In this document: piece by piece, positions 199 through 16,635 of the stretch
How positions within the stretch are numbered: position 1 is the first letter of the stretch
Layout: every line of letters begins with the position of its first letter
DNA from: a virus
Lineage: Duplodnaviria > Heunggongvirae > Uroviricota > Caudoviricetes
Strand: one strand, 5' to 3'
IMG/VR virus record: IMGVR_UViG_2537562020_000008
Length of the DNA stretch: 22,406 nucleotides
The notes under the pieces: model-generated
Told to the model about the DNA's origin: nothing
What the model saw: only the letters and a program-made list of their open reading frames with translations
The model's database searches: none
Made by a program: the position numbers and the translations under genes

Positions 199-546
199 TT
201 ATATGCGGATGCCAGCGCGTTCCGTTCGTTTCGGGTGCTTCCAGTTGATACCTTCAAGAAGCATGGATAACTGAGCCGGAGTAAGGTGAACCTTTCCATC
301 GCGGGTGACCGGCCAGACGAAGCGGCCCCGCTCCAGGCGTTTGGTGAAGAGGCACAGTCCGTCACTGTCAGCCCACAACACTTTTATCTGGTCACCCCGG
401 CGTCCGCGGAAGATGAACAGGTGTCCGGAGAACGGGTCATCCTTCAGGACGTTCTGAACTTTTGATGCCAGGCCGTTAAAGCCATTTCGCATATCGGTGA
501 TACCTGCAACCAGCCAGATACGCGAACCTGCAGGGAGAGATATCAT
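199..546 (-). CDS. IS66-family Orf2 (TnpB-like accessory protein)
   Basis: 115-aa ORF; the segment GITDMRNGFNGLASKVQNVLKDDPFSGHLFIFRGRRGDQIKVLWADSDGLCLFTKRLERGRFVWP is typical of IS66 Orf2; ATGA overlap with upstream orf1. Confidence 0.85.
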   Translation of the reverse strand: MISLPAGSRIWLVAGITDMRNGFNGLASKVQNVLKDDPFSGHLFIFRGRRGDQIKVLWADSDGLCLFTKRLERGRFVWPVTRDGKVHLTPAQLSMLLEGINWKHPKRTERAGIRI

Positions 547-1223
547 CAGTGGCTGCTCCCTTTTATTTCGCGGATAAGTGTCTGTAATAACGCCGGCGTC
601 AGTTTACCTTTAAGCCTGAGAGTTCCGGCCGGCAGAACCAGCTCACAACACAGACTGTCGGACGGTGTATTTATCTGCTCTGGTTCCTGTGCGGGGGCCG
701 GGATTTTATTATCCGGCTCCGGCGTTAACGTCACGGGAAGCAGTGCCGGCATATTTTTTCCGGAAGGCAGCAGGCCACCTTTCCGGTATTGATGGCGCCA
801 GTTGAAGAGCAGGTTATCGTTGATTCCGTTTTCCCGGGCGATCTGCGCCACACAGGCTCCGGGCTGCAGTGACTGCTCCACTAAGGCGATTTTAAACTCA
901 TAAGGGAAGTTGGGCCGCCGGGGACGTTTTTTTACCACGGGGGCTTCGGATATAACGGTGCTTTCAGGACGTACGACTGGTATCGTGGAAAATTGTCCGT
1001 AAAGGCAGGCATCAAGTTCCTGCTCCGACATGCCTGCGGGCAAAGGCCACGAAAGGCCAGCTCTCCGAAAGCGCACGAACATACTACAAACTGTTGATTT
1101 TGGTACACCCAGGCGACGCCCGGCCACAACCCGGGGTAAATGTTCTTCAAAGTGAAGACGTAAAGCTTCAGTGATCCAGGTCCGGTGTTTCATACGATAG
1201 TGTCCATTAAAAATGATGGACAT
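546..1223 (-). CDS. IS66-family Orf1 (TnpA-like accessory protein, HTH-containing)
   Basis: 225-aa ORF directly upstream of, and overlapping, IS66 Orf2; position and order fit IS66 architecture. True start may be the internal Met (MKHRTW...). Confidence 0.7.
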   Translation of the reverse strand: MSIIFNGHYRMKHRTWITEALRLHFEEHLPRVVAGRRLGVPKSTVCSMFVRFRRAGLSWPLPAGMSEQELDACLYGQFSTIPVVRPESTVISEAPVVKKRPRRPNFPYEFKIALVEQSLQPGACVAQIARENGINDNLLFNWRHQYRKGGLLPSGKNMPALLPVTLTPEPDNKIPAPAQEPEQINTPSDSLCCELVLPAGTLRLKGKLTPALLQTLIREIKGSSH

Positions 1224-1272
1224 TATTTTTGTAGAGCCGGAGGAAACAGACCAGACGGTTTAAATGAGCCGG

Positions 1273-1554
1273 TTACTGCCAAGCCGCAAACACCTGTCCC
1301 GGCTCATTTCCCAGTTCAGGCGATGGCGGCGGTTTTCCATCCCGTCTATCCGGAGGAAACAACACGATCTCCACTGAAGCAGGTGCCGACGTTGGTTTCG
1401 GCAGACGACGTAACTGCTCAACTATTGCTGCGCACGCCGCGCTCTGGAATTTTCGCCCCGCCGCGCTTATCAGGCTCTTACCAGCAAACGCCCCTTTGTT
1501 GGGGTGTCGCCAGTACGTGTTCACGCTGGGCGGAAAAGGCAGGATCAGCTTCAT
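1273..1554 (-). pseudogene. rusA: RusA-family Holliday-junction resolvase, apparently truncated at the C-terminus by the IS66-family insertion
   Basis: N-terminal MKLILPFPPSVNTYWR and ...FPPDRR resemble RusA (LPWPPSNNRYYR ... PDRRRRD). After DRR the sequence becomes a Pro/Gly-rich tail (DGKPPPSPELGNEPGQVFAAWQ) lying where the IS end is expected. Confidence 0.5.
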
Positions 1555-1877
1555 ACTTTCAGGTCCCTCTCATGTAACCAGTGGGTTGCACGCAGCCTTG
1601 CGTTTTCCTCACCGGCAAGCAGTGCGCGGATAATCCCGACCGCCTCGCTGTCGTCGTCCTTCCCCGCGGTATGAAGCGTTATCCCCCGGGCCACGCCACG
1701 CTTTATCGTGATGACGCCTTTTTTCTCCAGTGCGCGAAGATGCTCCACCGCTGCATTCACCGAACGGTATCCCAGCATGGTTGCCACCTCCTGATTGGTT
1801 GGCGGGAAGCCACGTTCTTTCTGATAAGAAATCAGCATATCCAGCACCTGCTGCTGGCATTGAGTTAACGTCGTCAT
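1551..1877 (-). CDS. LexA-like N-terminal DNA-binding domain protein (winged HTH), lacking the S24 peptidase domain
   Basis: 108 aa; TQCQQQVLDMLISYQKERGFPPTNQEVATMLGYRSVNAAVEHLRALEKKGVITI closely parallels the LexA N-terminal domain ([52 protein letters not shown]). ATGA-type overlaps with both neighbours. Confidence 0.6.
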   Translation of the reverse strand: MTTLTQCQQQVLDMLISYQKERGFPPTNQEVATMLGYRSVNAAVEHLRALEKKGVITIKRGVARGITLHTAGKDDDSEAVGIIRALLAGEENARLRATHWLHERDLKV

Positions 1878-2527
1878 GCCGCCATCTCCCTGACCAGTTT
1901 TTCCGCCTGCTGGCGAACCTGCGCCAGAAACGCCTCACCACATGCCTCAAGTTCATCGCGCCCGATGTAGCTGATTGCCGGTCCCTTCCAGGTCTTGTCA
2001 AAAACAGCAATAGCACCAGCGAAAAAAGCTCCTGTCGGTACCTGCTTCTCGTCTTTCGGGATAAACCAGACAGGCAGTTCAAAACCAATACGCCCGCGAA
2101 TAAAAGCAATATGATCTGCATCTTCCGGCCACCACACTTCGCTGGTGGCAGCTTTGATCAGGAAAACATAGCGCCCGCCCTTATCACGCATGGCACTGGC
2201 ATGTTTCATGATGTAACGCATGCCGGTGATGTATTGCCCCTCATGCTGACTGGCGCGGCTGTATGGGGGATTACCAAAGGCAGCACCTTTAAGCTCCGCA
2301 AGACGTTCTGACCAGTCATGCGCCAGCGCGTTGTCTTCCGCCGTGTAATACGCGGCACATTTGGCGTTATCACCGTCAGTGAACAGATCCAGAACAAACG
2401 GGCCAAACAGGGTGTTAATTCCCCAGAAAATGTTGTCCGGCGTGCGCCACTGATCGCCCACTTCCTTCAGTTCATGGGCTGGTTTGTTCCGCAGTTCCAC
2501 CAGCGCCTGGCAATATTTATTACTCAT
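1874..2527 (-). CDS. Phage-type DNA N-6-adenine methyltransferase (Dam family)
   Basis: Contains the NPPY catalytic motif (AAFGNPPYSR) in a context typical of phage Dam-like methyltransferases. Start taken at the ATG at 2527, which shares one nucleotide with the upstream gene stop (TAATG); a longer ORF to 2560 exists. Confidence 0.8.
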   Translation of the reverse strand: MSNKYCQALVELRNKPAHELKEVGDQWRTPDNIFWGINTLFGPFVLDLFTDGDNAKCAAYYTAEDNALAHDWSERLAELKGAAFGNPPYSRASQHEGQYITGMRYIMKHASAMRDKGGRYVFLIKAATSEVWWPEDADHIAFIRGRIGFELPVWFIPKDEKQVPTGAFFAGAIAVFDKTWKGPAISYIGRDELEACGEAFLAQVRQQAEKLVREMAA

Positions 2528-3021
2528 TAAGCCCCCACGTAATTCCCTGACAGATACCACTCTTCACCCGATGCAGCGCGCTTGCTGCTTTTCCGTAAGC
2601 ACCGCTCACGACGCGTCAGAAAATTGTTTCGTTCTGGCTGGGAGTGGCTTTCACGGAATGCCGCCATCCACACGGTTGCAGCACGACGGTATAAGCCCCT
2701 GGACTCCAGTTCTTCCGCCTGGCGGGTCAGGCACAAAATCACACGGGGATCGTTAGTGCCGACATAGAAATTGCGCACAGGTCTGGTTTCACGAACTGGT
2801 TGTGGTTCCGGTTCCTGCGCTCTCTCAGTCAGGCGCGGGAAATGTCTGCGTGTATCTCCTTCACAACGGTGAGCCACACGCCCACTCTGACGTAACTTGC
2901 TTGCTGACTGCAGAACGCGCTGCCGTGAGTAACCGGCAAAAGCATCCGCAATATCTCCGGAAGTACAGCCCGGATGGGCTTCAATGAATTTCTGAACGTC
3001 ATTCAAAAGACTCATGCTCAC
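2527..3021 (-). CDS. Prophage regulatory protein: N-terminal winged-helix-like region and C-terminal PerC-like motif (family uncertain)
   Basis: 164 aa; C-terminal AEELESRGLYRRAATVWMAAF recalls the PerC/Pch signature from memory. GTGA overlap with the upstream replication gene. Confidence 0.45.
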   Translation of the reverse strand: MSMSLLNDVQKFIEAHPGCTSGDIADAFAGYSRQRVLQSASKLRQSGRVAHRCEGDTRRHFPRLTERAQEPEPQPVRETRPVRNFYVGTNDPRVILCLTRQAEELESRGLYRRAATVWMAAFRESHSQPERNNFLTRRERCLRKSSKRAASGEEWYLSGNYVGA

Positions 3022-3959
3022 CCCCTGAATCCTGCCGGGATCTGGCTGTAGTCCACGTTGTCGTAACTGGCTTTGAAGTACGGGTCTTCGCGTTTTTCGG
3101 TGTACGTGCTGACGGACGGCGATAAGCGCAGGGAAAGCTCATCCCATTTTTCCCGCAGCTTCGACGGGCTGAGCACGTTACGGCACCAGAACGGATCGCG
3201 ACTGACGCGGCTGTACATCTCGCAGATTTGTTTATGAGTACGACCATCCTGCACACACATCAGGCGAATTTCGTTTGCCCAGGCTGTCCAGTTCGGTTCT
3301 TTGGGACGAACCACCTCGCCGTCACATTCGGCGGCCTGCTCGTACAGGGCGATGATTTTTTTCCAGAGCCACTGTGCGCAGGTCAAATCATCCTGCGTTC
3401 CCCACTGGCGCTTTTTAGGGCTGAATACAACCGCATCAGGATGGCGAGTTAAAAACTCCTGTTCAGCCGTCTGCGTGTCCGGTTGCGAAGCGTCCGGACG
3501 AGAAGTTTTTTTATCTGACGGATCATGTTTTGATTTTACTGACGGATCCCCGCCAGATTCTGACGGGTGAAAACCCGCTTTTTTGCCAGATTTCGACGCA
3601 TCAAATTTTGACGGGTCAGATTTTGATGCGTCAGATTTTGACGGGTCAGAATCTGACAGTTGAGAAAATGCCGCTGCCTGAAGCTTCGCAACGTTAAGCT
3701 GATAAACATTCGACGCATTGCGGTTACCCTGGCGACGCGCCTTACGCGTTAACCAGCCTTCTGCTTCCAGCCGTGCGATAGCCGTTCTGACGGTACTCAT
3801 CCCCGCGCCAATCTGACGGGCAATGGTTTCAATTGATGGCCAGCACACCCCTTCGTCATTACTGAAATCAGCCAGGCGGGCCATAATTGCCACGCTGGAT
3901 AATTTCATGCCTGACGCTGCGCAACCATCCCATACATAGCCGGTTAATTTAGTGCTCAT
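3018..3959 (-). CDS. Phage replication initiation protein (lambda O-like organiser: N-terminal HTH, repeat-rich linker, C-terminal domain)
   Basis: 313 aa; N-terminal HTH (WPSIETIARQIGAGMSTVRTAIARLEAEGWLTR); central repeats SDSDPSKSDASKSDPSKFDASKS encoded by the iteron DNA; sits downstream of cro and the CII-like gene as in lambdoid phages. Confidence 0.75.
   Translation of the reverse strand: MSTKLTGYVWDGCAASGMKLSSVAIMARLADFSNDEGVCWPSIETIARQIGAGMSTVRTAIARLEAEGWLTRKARRQGNRNASNVYQLNVAKLQAAAFSQLSDSDPSKSDASKSDPSKFDASKSGKKAGFHPSESGGDPSVKSKHDPSDKKTSRPDASQPDTQTAEQEFLTRHPDAVVFSPKKRQWGTQDDLTCAQWLWKKIIALYEQAAECDGEVVRPKEPNWTAWANEIRLMCVQDGRTHKQICEMYSRVSRDPFWCRNVLSPSKLREKWDELSLRLSPSVSTYTEKREDPYFKASYDNVDYSQIPAGFRG
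3513..3664. repeat. Iteron array (about 8 copies of a ~15-bp unit, core TGACGG/TGATGCG) inside the replication gene; putative phage origin
   Basis: Seen directly: attttgacgggtcag / attttgatgcgtcag / attttgacgggtcag / aatctgacagttgag in tandem at 3605..3664, with more degenerate copies at 3513..3604 and an A/T-rich stretch at about 3500..3512. Confidence 0.7.
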
Positions 3960-3968
3960 GACCGACCT

Positions 3969-4307
3969 CTATTTCCCTGAATTTACGACGAAACTGTTCG
4001 AGCGGACTGAAGCACTCATGCTCATAGCCTTCGCGGAGGTAGATAACCCGTTGTGTTTCCGGTTCCCAACGAATGACTCTGACGGGCACTCCGTAGTGAT
4101 CTTTGAACCAGCGGTTAACTTGTCGCAAAGGACTGTCTCCTTCTGCCGGTTGAAATCACCCACAGCCCACTCTGCAAAGCTGTGGGTTACAATTTCCCTG
4201 TCACCTGGTACATTTACTGCATAGCAATACTCCACCTTCGCTTTTCCACCCGGTACAGGAAGCGCAATCAGTTGCGAGCGACGGTAGTGTGTTGTTAAAC
4301 TGTTCAT
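3969..4307 (-). CDS. Hypothetical prophage protein (112 aa)
   Basis: ATGA overlap with the upstream CII-like gene supports translation. An alternative frame with a good RBS and TTG start near 4127 also exists, so the gene model is uncertain. Confidence 0.4.
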
Positions 4308-4855
4308 GCGTTAGTTTCTCCACAGTCACGACACGCCACGGCGCCCGGAGCTGCACACTCGCGGGCGTCATTACTTTCTGAAATGCAAAAGATTTTGTAG
4401 ACCAGTGCTGCATGCTCCTGCAGCTTCGAAATTGAGAGATATAGCTCGTCGTTAATTGCAGTTTTCTCATGCGGTTCCACTACACCGTCTTCGATTGCTG
4501 AACGAATCTGTTTTGAATAACTGCCGATCTGTTCAATGACCTCCAGCAGGCGTTGGTTGATATCGGCGTTGTCCACATCCTCGACATCAGGAAGAGACAC
4601 AAAGACGCCATTTGCAGACTGCGCCACAGCGTCAGCAATGAAGTGAGTTCCACCAGCACGTTGCAAAATCATTGCCCATCCCAGCGGGAAAATCTGATCG
4701 CCATCGGCACGAAGGCGGTTAAATAATGCGTTCTCTGTTACATCCAGCCAGTCAGCAGCTTCAGCGTACCCCCCCGGCAACGCTGCGATAGTTTTTCTGA
4801 CAGCTTTCACGTACCACTCAGGCTGTTTTTCTACTTTCCAGTGATGCTTACCCAC
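4304..4855 (-). CDS. Phage regulatory protein, CII-like (CP76 family) - tentative
   Basis: 183 aa immediately downstream of cro in the rightward operon; overall pattern ([35 protein letters not shown]...) resembles CP76-type CII regulators as I recall them. Confidence 0.5.
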
Positions 4856-5108
4856 GGTTCACCTCCTGTTCCTGTGGTTTAAACCCATTCTGGTTTTGGC
4901 TAGATTGAAAACGTGCCGGATAAAGAATCTGCATTTCGCTGACTTCACCCTTAAAAAAATTGGCTAAACGTTCTGCAAGCTCGATAGATGGAATCTGCTC
5001 CAGCCTCTCAATACGACTCAACGTCGCTGGATTGACTTGAACACCCGCAGCAACATGCTGCAAAGTGAAACCATGCGCCTTACGCACATTTCGTAATGGT
5101 GATTGCAT
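4848..5108 (-). CDS. cro: Cro-like HTH (XRE-family) repressor
   Basis: 86 aa; HTH motif GFTLQHVAAGVQVNPATLSRIERLEQIPSIELAERLANFF; divergent from the cI-like gene across an operator-rich 97-bp spacer. Confidence 0.8.
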   Translation of the reverse strand: MQSPLRNVRKAHGFTLQHVAAGVQVNPATLSRIERLEQIPSIELAERLANFFKGEVSEMQILYPARFQSSQNQNGFKPQEQEVNRG

Positions 5109-5205
5109 ACGCCCTCCAAATATTGCGCGTTATGCATGTTATTTCACGCAATTATTTTGCGCAAGTTGATTTGCTTATCACGCAATAAAGAAATGTAATA
5201 AACGC
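5109..5205. promoter_or_regulatory. Immunity-region operator/promoter region (OR-like) between cro and cI
   Basis: Seen directly: ttgcgcgttatgcat (5123..5137), cacgcaattattttgcg (5144..5160) and ttgcttatcacgcaa (5171..5185), sharing TTGC/GCAA half-sites. Confidence 0.7.
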
Positions 5206-5898
5206 ATGAACATAGGAAACCGAGTCAGACAACTTCGCCAAGCGAAGAACATGAAAATCGCCGATCTCGCTGAAGCGATAGGAGTAGATGCGGCGAACAT
5301 CTCGCGCTTAGAAACGGGTAAGCAAAAACAATTTACCGAACAAACACTGAGTAATATTGCCAAGAGCTTAGGTGTTGATATTGCTGATCTCTTTACCTCT
5401 GCCCACAAAAGTAATACTGTATATAAAAACAGTAATAATGAGGATGTTGCGCAGGTGAAGGATGTGTTCCGTATTGAAATGCTGGATATCAGTGCCAGTG
5501 CGGGAAATGGCCTTATCCAGGGCGGTGATGTCATTGATGTGATTCATGCCATCGAATACAGAACTGATAATGCTGTATCAATGTTCGGCGGACGACCAGC
5601 CAATCACATCAAAGTTATCAACGTTCGTGGGGACAGTATGTGTCCAACCATTGAGCCCGGAGATCTCATCTTCGTTGATGTCAGCATCAATCAGTTTGAT
5701 GGTGATGGTATATATGTCTTTGGTTTTGATGACAAAATATACGTTAAAAGACTTCAAATGATTCCTGACAAACTGCTGGTGATTTCTGATAACCAGATTT
5801 ACCGTGAATGGGGAATTACTAGCGAAAACGAACACCGATTCATGGTCTTTGGAAAGGTCTTAATCAGTCAGTCGCAAACCCTTAAGAGACATAATTAA
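5206..5898 (+). CDS. cI: cI-like prophage repressor (N-terminal XRE HTH + C-terminal LexA-like S24 peptidase domain)
   Basis: 230 aa; HTH (MKIADLAEAIGVDAANISRLETGK) and C-terminal S24-type region (VRGDSMCPTIEPGDLIFVD ... IYVKRL). Confidence 0.9.
   Translation: MNIGNRVRQLRQAKNMKIADLAEAIGVDAANISRLETGKQKQFTEQTLSNIAKSLGVDIADLFTSAHKSNTVYKNSNNEDVAQVKDVFRIEMLDISASAGNGLIQGGDVIDVIHAIEYRTDNAVSMFGGRPANHIKVINVRGDSMCPTIEPGDLIFVDVSINQFDGDGIYVFGFDDKIYVKRLQMIPDKLLVISDNQIYREWGITSENEHRFMVFGKVLISQSQTLKRHN
5415..5434. promoter_or_regulatory. Near-consensus SOS (LexA) box embedded in the cI coding sequence
   Basis: Seen directly: TACTGTATATAAAAACAGTA versus consensus TACTGTATATATATACAGTA; CTGT-N8-ACAG core intact. 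Confidence 0.5.
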
Positions 5899-5917
5899 CC
5901 TCAATATCCCATCCATC

Positions 5918-5942
5918 GGCCACCGAAAGGTGGCTTTTTATT
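5918..5942 (+). terminator. Rho-independent terminator downstream of cI
   Basis: GGCCACC-gaaa-GGTGGC hairpin followed by TTTTTATT, 20 nt after the cI stop. Confidence 0.75.
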
Positions 5943-5952
5943 ACCTATAAAT

Positions 5953-5989
5953 TTGCATATCTCGCAAATATCACTTGCATGTCTCGCAA
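5953..5989. promoter_or_regulatory. OL-like operator pair (two 15-bp TTGC-N7-GCAA sites, 22 bp apart)
   Basis: Seen directly: ttgcatatctcgcaa (5953..5967) and ttgcatgtctcgcaa (5975..5989), same half-sites as the cro/cI intergenic sites. Confidence 0.55.
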
Positions 5990-6175
5990 TTTAATTTTAT
6001 CTTTTGTTCCAGACCAACTACAGGATTACAACAAAATCTGGTTGCAACACGGTGCATGTGTCGTAAGCAGTCAGTAAATGTCAAAAACGAACAGGCAGGA
6101 CGCCCACGAAGTAGCCGCCTGGGGCATATGAAGTCCAGGATGATTCGTTGAGTCATGTTGTGCCACTAGGCACTC

Positions 6176-11050: not shown

Positions 11051-11064
11051 CTTATTGATTTAAA

Positions 11065-11113
11065 TGGTGCCGATAATAGGAGTCGAACCTACGACCTTCG
11101 CATTACGAATGCG
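11065..11113 (-). other. att core: 3' 49 nt of a tRNA-Thr (thrW-type, anticodon CGT) gene; the 5' half of the tRNA is not present here
   Basis: Reverse complement CGCATTCGTAATGCGAAGGTCGTAGGTTCGACTCCTATTATCGGCACCA equals the anticodon-loop-to-CCA segment of tRNA-Thr(CGT) as recalled; the sequence 5' of it is not tRNA-like. Confidence 0.8.
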
Positions 11114-11201
11114 TAAATTGATCTTGTAAAATCAATACCTATCGAATTTAAATGGATTTTTTGCCACAATATTGCCACAGTTCGTTAGGAATCAGACAGA
11201 A

Positions 11202-13411: not shown

Positions 13412-13624
13412 CTAGTGAGCTATTTTATAGTCCCTTAATGCATTTTTAAGTAACTCCGTTTGCTCATCAGCATCATCATAATTATAAATTCCCGTAGCAG
13501 AATAATACTCTTCGATGCATAGAATATTTATCAATGGTTCACAAATCTCTTTAATAAAATCCTTGTTGTTATCGGCAAAAATAATTTTTATTCCTTCCAA
13601 AACAAAGCTATTATAATCAGCCAT
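13412..13624 (-). CDS. Hypothetical small acidic protein (70 aa)
   Basis: Strong RBS (AGGAGGTGGATAATG); acidic composition; no family recognised. Confidence 0.55.
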   Translation of the reverse strand: MADYNSFVLEGIKIIFADNNKDFIKEICEPLINILCIEEYYSATGIYNYDDADEQTELLKNALRDYKIAH

Positions 13625-13693
13625 TATCCACCTCCTTACAGGTGTTTAGTGGAAGCGTCAGTTAACGTTACCGCGCTAACTGACGCGCCTAAA

Positions 13694-16517: not shown

Positions 16518-16584
16518 ACAGGCGGTAGCCGATCAGCCTCGCAGAGCAGGACTCCGTTGAGCAGCTCAGCTGCGAATAAGGGAA

Positions 16585-16635
16585 GGTAAAGTAGAAGCAC
16601 CGTTTACGGTGGGCCTACTTTACATATCCTGCCCT
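16585..16635. other. oriT-like site: 9-bp inverted repeat around an inner palindrome, followed by a MOBP-type nick motif ATCCTGC
   Basis: Seen directly: GTAAAGTAG-aagcaccgtttacggtgggc-CTACTTTAC then acatATCCTGCcc at 16626..16632; lies ~70 bp upstream of mobC. Confidence 0.4.

Follow-up and report, generated by a model that had tools for sequence, protein, structure and literature searches.

The DNA considered here is a stretch of 22,406 nucleotides from a tailed phage (IMG/VR virus record IMGVR_UViG_2537562020_000008; Caudoviricetes), referred to at its full length as the window, which carries the left part of an SfII-like prophage. Within it lies yfdN, a delayed-early gene of lambdoid prophages of the SfII/SfV/CPS-53 type, which has already been annotated and is therefore nothing new in identity. 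Its product belongs, at the sequence level, to the PerC family, with a match well past chance, and is predicted to consist of a winged helix, a disordered linker and a three-helix PerC domain. The explanation that we favour, and to which we give about an even chance, is that YfdN may have an auxiliary part in the development of the phage, modulating transcription or nucleoprotein structure, rather than being devoted to switching on a virulence island of the host. Nothing indicates that a virulence locus is its target.

Very little of this is new, in that yfdN is already named, is annotated in thousands of genomes and is known in the literature as the K-12 PerC homologue. The analysis does carry a caution, namely that, when a prophage gene is annotated as a member of the PerC family, activation of virulence does not follow; the YfdN subgroup has a different architecture and is a fixed gene of the early operon. 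YfdN is also among the commonest uncharacterised prophage proteins of E. coli, being present in about half of complete genomes, and a simple genetic test would therefore fill a real, if modest, gap in annotation. The candidate roles that such a test would have to tell apart are anti-silencing, anti-activation and a replication accessory function.

Family membership and architecture of YfdN

The window protein is identical to E. coli K-12 YfdN (b2357, cryptic prophage CPS-53/KpLE1) at 161 of 164 residues (98%), and at a 100%-identical locus RefSeq gives WP_072146855.1 the name 'yfdN: PerC family transcriptional regulator'. Of 5426 complete E. coli genomes, 2673 carry near-identical yfdN DNA. 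A full-length match to PHROG 1324 (aa 2-163, E 9e-79) places the protein in the YfdN-type two-domain subgroup, and orthologues are found in the isolated phages SfII (SfII_42), SfV (orf40), SfIV, mEp460 and ST64B (Sb43), as well as in many Stx2c phages. Identity is 94-99% to the E. coli and Shigella phage orthologues and 68.5% to that of ST64B; in K-12 and in these five phages the protein is essentially the same as in the window, and the order O-yfdN-dam-lexA-like-rusA is common to all. The SfII copy is annotated as a 'PerC transcriptional activator family protein'. The 164-aa form taken by RefSeq starts at a GTG codon, and an alternative ATG start two codons downstream (3013-3015), giving 162 aa, corresponds to the 'MSLL...' with which most homologues begin. 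In earlier work on the Pch proteins yfdN was termed 'the K12 unique PerC homologue' and was deleted to provide a clean background for the assays (PMC5931665).

The initial annotation had recognised a PerC/Pch-like motif, and a search with the PerC-family hidden Markov model (HMM), the check that it proposed, gives a significant match. Pfam PF06069, for which the gathering cut-off is 22.6 bits, aligns to aa 100-151 with 36.6 bits (E 5.6e-9), rising to 38.5 bits when the C-terminal 82 aa are used alone. BLASTP against PerC of enteropathogenic E. coli (EPEC) plasmid pMAR2 aligns aa 100-145 to PerC 6-51 with 37% identity over 46 residues (E 8e-7), and residues L105, R113, A114, R138 and C141 are invariant in an alignment of 26 family sequences that includes EPEC PerC. 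The motif itself, AEELESRGLYRRAATVW, covers aa 102-118 of the 164-aa protein (window 2668-2718). The initial annotation needs a small correction here, for the motif opens the C-terminal domain and is not at the C-terminus of the protein as such. In size the protein departs from its namesakes, for PerC, PchABC and PchE are single-domain proteins of about 90-105 aa and the window protein has an extra winged helix and linker. Wider searching with HMMER, over 1.8 billion cluster representatives, returns 99 clusters at E <=0.001, among them many full-length two-domain relatives with identities down to 25%; the source-named relatives all come from genera of the Enterobacterales. A match to a 462-aa repeat protein (P0209) in this search was judged spurious from its sequence, and the PADLOC defence models gave only a match of 12.8 bits, at the level of chance.

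The architecture of YfdN was modelled with AlphaFold on the basis of 19 homologues, with the C-terminal domain also modelled separately (Table 1). Foldseek searches of the PDB with the N-terminal domain recover the winged helices of ArsR/SmtB, BlaI, MarR and PerR over about 60 residues, with an rmsd of about 2 A and a probability of 1.0, at weak E values of 0.06-0.3; the full model gives generic winged-helix matches only, at E 0.003 or worse. No Pfam match to the N-terminal domain was found in the Pfam scan, and its weak HMM matches are to the MarR-type PHROG 1687 (6e-5) and the Ren-like PHROG 142 (0.0058). For the C-terminal domain the Foldseek matches are to three-helix, protein-binding modules of TPR/MIT-like form and are non-significant (E >0.3), so that they speak to fold class only, and a sequence search of the PDB gave no match at E up to 10. 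The two-domain relatives conserve the N-terminal domain, the PerC core and a C-terminal ending of the form W-x-L-A-G-x-Y-x-G; EPEC PerC lacks this ending, and the N-terminal domain is missing both from it and from the short homologues.

How far, then, can the properties of known PerC proteins be carried over to YfdN? EPEC PerC (89 aa, from perABC on the pMAR2/EAF plasmid) has a core of about 50 residues in common with YfdN, A-x2-LE-x-(K/R)G-x-Y-RRAA-x2-W ... R-x2-C, and both match PF06069. Outside this core EPEC PerC lacks the N-terminal winged helix and differs in its C-terminal extension, and it is encoded on a plasmid in the operon of an AraC-type regulator at a GC content of 34.8%, whereas yfdN sits in a phage operon at 54.7%. 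Activation of LEE1, in the enterocyte effacement locus (LEE), has been demonstrated for EPEC PerC (PMC11773190, PMC5931665). The Pch proteins of enterohaemorrhagic E. coli (EHEC) belong to the same Pfam family and are likewise found on mobile elements; all are short, and they comprise group 1 (PchA/B/C, from 315-bp genes), group 2 (PchD), with PchE as group 3. Primers published for pchE (supplement of PMC6265319) led to a pchE-type locus whose product, about 90 aa long, consists of a PerC domain only; the locus lies in an island resembling a phage-inducible chromosomal island (PICI), downstream of genes for a DUF927 primase and a single-stranded DNA-binding protein (SSB). Nothing in the window matches the pchD primer. 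That YfdN might be PchD or PchE is thus ruled out, and on the same grounds it constitutes a fourth, architecturally distinct group. In E. coli 2013C-3342 (L006:7048-7320) a pchE-type gene with an internal stop, annotated as a pseudogene, directly follows the DUF927 primase and SSB genes and therefore also adjoins a replication module.

The activities of these proteins are far from uniform. Transcription of ler is activated at least 4-fold by PchA, PchB and PchC, less than 2-fold by PchE and not at all by PchD (PMC5931665). LEE1 is repressed by a PerC homologue carried on a PICI, which the authors of that study suspect of resembling the AraC negative regulators (ANR) (PMC11773190), while PchE represses csgD and curli and affects flagella (PMC6265319, PMC7369912). 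PchA works by relieving silencing by H-NS, StpA, Hha and YdgT, on which its activation depends wholly, and Pch has no recognisable DNA-binding domain or homology (PMC4764244).

The initial annotation had gone on to suggest that the prophage could activate a virulence locus, the LEE or similar, and so regulate chromosomal genes in trans. The PerC-family core is genuine, PerC and PchA/B/C do activate LEE1 or ler (PMC5931665, PMC4764244), and with cI intact SOS induction of yfdN is conceivable, as it occurs for the pch genes of group 1 (PMC5931665). However, this activity is confined to PerC and PchABC, and because the other members have no effect or repress, the family assignment is supported and the activator role is not. 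The two-domain architecture is different, and the context of the gene is that of the core operon, unlike an AT-rich moron. The genomes closest to the window are those of E1648 and related E-numbered diarrhoeal isolates, TW10598, B2C and O6:H16 2014EL-1346-6, which we take to be enterotoxigenic E. coli (ETEC); ETEC are not known to have the LEE. If W3110, a K-12 strain that presumably carries yfdN, does so, then the native gene did not replace pch in extracts of that strain, although it may simply be unexpressed. The extracts concerned were crude preparations from W3110 with or without a pch plasmid (PMC4764244). Taken on this evidence, a prophage-borne activator of virulence is highly improbable.

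A second way of reading the PerC-like core is as an ANR-like negative regulator, in which the domain would attach to an activator of the AraC family (in ETEC, for instance, Rns/CfaD), or to H-NS, or both, and counteract it, and so dampen virulence or other genes of the host on induction. The NCBIfam profile ANR_neg_reg (NF033650), which covers proteins such as Aar, does align to aa 98-144 (E 2.8e-5), suggesting a common helical core, and the repression of LEE1 by the PICI protein points the same way. In two reports (PMC5570504, PMC10148876), ANR proteins are described as widespread in enteric pathogens and as small proteins that accompany activators of the AraC/XylS family and contact both AraC regulators and H-NS. 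The profile score of 23.9 bits is nevertheless below both the curated cut-off of 32 and the PerC score, and the profile is only 54 positions long. Moreover, YfdN is a 164-aa product of a phage operon, with no AraC gene nearby either in the window or in the lineages examined, whereas the ANR proteins are described as small companions of AraC/XylS regulators. An ANR-like role for YfdN is accordingly unlikely.

Operon context, synteny and natural variants

The rightward early genes of the prophage run, in order, cro, a CII (CP76) homologue, DUF4222, an O-like replication initiator, yfdN, dam, a gene for a protein with only a LexA DNA-binding domain (LexA-DBD) and a truncated rusA. Divergent from cro are cI, then yfdP-T, xis and int, and beyond these lie a second integrase and a conjugative-element remnant. 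The placing of the gene in the early region of a prophage by the initial annotation is thereby confirmed. Neighbouring reading frames are closely interlocked: the TGA stop of the initiator overlaps the GTG start of yfdN (GTGA), the TAA stop of yfdN overlaps the ATG start of dam (TAATG, with the junction reading ...GTGGGGGCTTAATG), and the stop of dam overlaps the start of the next gene (ATGA). The G-rich ribosome-binding site of dam lies within the last codons of yfdN, just as the last codons of the initiator form that of yfdN. The GC content of yfdN is within the 53-58% of its neighbours, and a consensus scan of the coding strand from 1200 to 6000, itself crude, found no sigma-70-like promoter. 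Thus yfdN looks like a core operon gene and not an AT-rich, separately regulated moron, and with its neighbour-like GC content, its start and stop overlaps and no promoter of its own detected, it should stay silent while cI represses PR. The cI-type repressor is 100% identical to SfII CI and, judging from lambdoid gene order, would be expected to hold yfdN and the rest of the rightward early operon silent until SOS induction.

The gene order is strongly conserved. In a set of seven loci, made up of SfII and six further two-domain homologues with 26-54% identity to the window protein, all seven have the order cI / cro / CII / (DUF4222 or small open reading frame) / initiator / yfdN-type / methyltransferase / LexA-DBD / RusA / Rha-ANT or KilA-N / DUF968 / Q, which is also kept in the isolated phages SfII, SfIV, SfV, mEp460 and ST64B. 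The methyltransferase slot is variable across the lineages and may hold Dam (PF05869), MT-A70 (PF05063) or an unannotated and unrelated 250-aa protein, while the flanking yfdN and LexA-DBD genes are fixed; in SfIV the slot is without a gene (PMC3851460). On the upstream side, an initiator gene, annotated as 'O protein family' or 'DNA replication protein O' in SfII and other phages, directly precedes the yfdN homologue in seven of seven lineages, with its stop overlapping or only a few bases away. These initiators are mosaics, with three unrelated types of N-terminal domain and two of C-terminal domain, and all that lie upstream of yfdN-type genes end in ...DYSxIPAGFRG (the initiator gene end at window 3018-3050). 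This shared tail might represent a peptide motif under conservation, the junction of a recombination event or a constraint of translational coupling. A tandem array of 15-bp repeats lies inside the O-like gene at 3510-3661 (consensus CAGATTTTGACGGGT, with 4.3 copies at 3587-3650 and degenerate copies from 3510) and is the coding sequence for the repeat linker, SDSDPSKSDASKSD, in the initiator. By comparison with lambda, where ori lies inside gene O, the repeats are candidate origin iterons.

No protein resembling P, DnaC or DnaB is encoded in the early regions of SfII and the six further lineages, which makes a replication-accessory role in the slot of lambda P or ren possible. In that case YfdN would not be a transcription factor and would bind the initiator, perhaps through the ...DYSxIPAGFRG tail, or host replication proteins, or both. 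It adjoins the initiator in every lineage although the initiators are mosaics, the authors of the SfIV sequence put the gene within the 'replication module' (PMC3851460), and the PchE-type genes of PICI-like islands likewise follow primase and SSB genes. There may also be a resemblance to lambda Ren. Like yfdN, ren follows one or more replication genes (in lambda, P) and precedes nin-type genes; Ren has no PerC domain. The similarity is faint, for although hhalign of Ren aa 5-67 against the winged helix gives E 0.0016, its probability is 15.8%, the match to the Ren-like PHROG is weak, and BLASTP of YfdN against lambda Ren gave no match. A lambda P-type helicase loader was also considered and rejected, hhalign giving a probability of 0.1% and no similarity. 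Adjacency to the initiator, moreover, may only reflect the inheritance of one conserved operon.

Two natural variants bear further on this question. The first is in phage cdtI, whose prophage is reportedly inducible. In its complete circular genome (AB285204.1; L020:3923-4120) an in-frame deletion equivalent to window 2543-2937 has reduced yfdN to a stub of 31 aa, MSLLNEVQKFIEAHPGCTSGDIADAFYVGD, which remains between initiator and dam with the overlaps to the initiator stop and the dam start both kept, as if what is being preserved were the translational coupling and not the protein. The second is in the Stx2a_WGPS2 provirus of O157:H7 (AP012537.1; L005:5028-6829), where the yfdN homologue is split by an insertion of IS629. 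From these two cases we infer that yfdN is probably accessory rather than essential. Retention of initiator and dam in cdtI with only 31 codons of yfdN, and disruption of the gene in Stx2a_WGPS2, both argue against a replication accessory, which we regard as a rather unlikely role for YfdN. In a more specific form of the idea, the fusion of winged helix and PerC domain would be a dedicated partner of the initiator in SfV/SfII/ST64B-type phages that encode neither helicase nor loader, and would either bring in replication proteins of the host or strip nucleoprotein of the H-NS type off the origin within the O gene, allowing replication and early transcription to go ahead. This too is unlikely; were it true, the virulence regulators would have their PerC domain from a phage accessory of replication or anti-silencing. 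Whatever the role of YfdN, the strict pairing of a two-domain protein with a replication initiator in a phage lineage without a helicase loader is a loose end.

Expression of yfdN and the favoured explanation

The prophage in the window is defective. IS66 has inserted in rusA, leaving a reading frame of 93 aa against 129 aa in SfII, and beyond it Q and the lysis and structural or morphogenesis genes are missing, having been removed by the insertion. It could therefore be asked whether yfdN is simply an intact but inert passenger in a decaying element, neither expressed nor selected. The truncation and the gene losses are in keeping with this, as is the persistence of yfdN in CPS-53 of K-12, beside truncated yfdO and yfdM and with the immunity region lost. 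The window prophage, in contrast to CPS-53, still has its immunity region, and its repressor and the operon from cro to the truncated rusA are intact. The yfdN reading frame has its full length, and functional phages as well as thousands of genomes carry copies with 98-100% identity to it. Expression data sets of uropathogenic E. coli also feature yfdN together with neighbouring prophage genes (PMC5320621, PMC5404293). An inert passenger is, on balance, very unlikely.

The favoured explanation, an accessory modulator during phage development, can be set out as a sequence of steps. Transcription of yfdN from PR would take place only once the repressor is inactivated, and even in a prophage truncated by IS66 and without lysis genes SOS induction could still express the gene, so that an effect on host genes is conceivable. 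The PerC domain would most likely contact nucleoid or regulatory proteins, by analogy with Pch, which displaces the silencing complexes of H-NS, StpA and Hha, and with the ANR proteins, which work through contacts with other proteins; the sub-threshold ANR match over the same residues and the non-significant likeness of the fold to TPR/MIT-type protein-binding helices are in line with this. The winged helix, which is missing from PerC and Pch, would supply the targeting to DNA. In this combination YfdN would modulate transcription or nucleoprotein structure in the course of phage development.

Several points weigh against this explanation. The link to H-NS is carried over from PchA, which has only the core of about 50 residues in common with YfdN. 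The winged helix, which has no significant match to a sequence family, could equally bind protein rather than DNA. With regard to expression, the 3' end of the gene in SfV contains -35/-10 signals that the authors of the sequence assigned to dam, and internal promoters in the yfdN region are therefore possible. The variants in cdtI and Stx2a_WGPS2 may not be fully viable. Finally, the literature search found no paper that assigns a function to YfdN and no experiment on such a function, and its UniProt and EcoCyc-style name is still 'uncharacterized protein YfdN' (also bioRxiv 10.1101/2025.05.07.652715).

Other features of the window

The coordinates of yfdN, its predicted domains and the other features of the window are collected in Table 1.

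Table 1. Features of the window, with the evidence or remarks for each.
Feature	Position	Strand	Description	Evidence or remark
yfdN-type coding sequence	2527..3021	minus	164 aa from GTG 3019-3021	Listing of open reading frames
N-terminal winged-helix domain (predicted)	2830..3021	minus	aa 1-64; helices 2-15, 21-27, 33-46; beta-hairpin wing 49-62	AlphaFold block, predicted local distance difference test (pLDDT) 76-90
Linker (predicted)	2752..2829	minus	aa 65-90; disordered at aa 65-86 (pLDDT <50)	Variable in length and sequence; gap-rich, unconserved alignment columns
PerC domain (predicted)	2569..2748	minus	aa 92-151; three helices 92-107, 111-124, 128-151; pLDDT >90	Holds AEELESRGLYRRAATVW
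C-terminal tail	2530..2568	minus	aa 152-164; ending W-x-L-(A/S)-G-x-(Y/F)-x-G	Low pLDDT
dam, phage Dam N6-adenine methyltransferase	1874..2527	minus	Directly downstream of yfdN	PF05869 156 bits; RefSeq annotation
O-like replication initiator	3018..3959	minus	313 aa: N-terminal HTH_36 winged helix, repeat linker, C-terminal domain	HTH_36 42.9 bits; directly upstream of yfdN
cI-type repressor	5206..5898	plus	Helix-turn-helix plus S24 autopeptidase	Pfam Peptidase_S24 68.3 bits; HTH_3/HTH_26
LexA-DBD-only protein	1551-1877	minus	108 aa	No S24 peptidase
IS66 tnpB/tnpA	199-1223		Inserted in rusA	Region considered: 199-1554
PtaRNA1 antitoxin small RNA	13618-13690	plus	In AT-rich conjugative-element remnant right of the prophage	Rfam 48.6 bits
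traJ-II RNA	16535-16634	minus	Upstream of traJ, in the same conjugative-element remnant	Rfam 93.1 bits

In strain E1648 a 112-nt 'tRNA-Ser' is annotated by RefSeq between the two integrases, at a position equivalent to window about 11052-11163. ARAGORN found no tRNA in the whole window, and the E1648 feature may be mis-annotated or may be what is left of an attachment site. Just past IS66, related genomes have a gene for the defence protein Avs2. The LexA-DBD-only gene holds the same slot in most diverged prophage lineages examined, and its 108-aa product could be a candidate non-cleavable mimic of LexA at SOS boxes.

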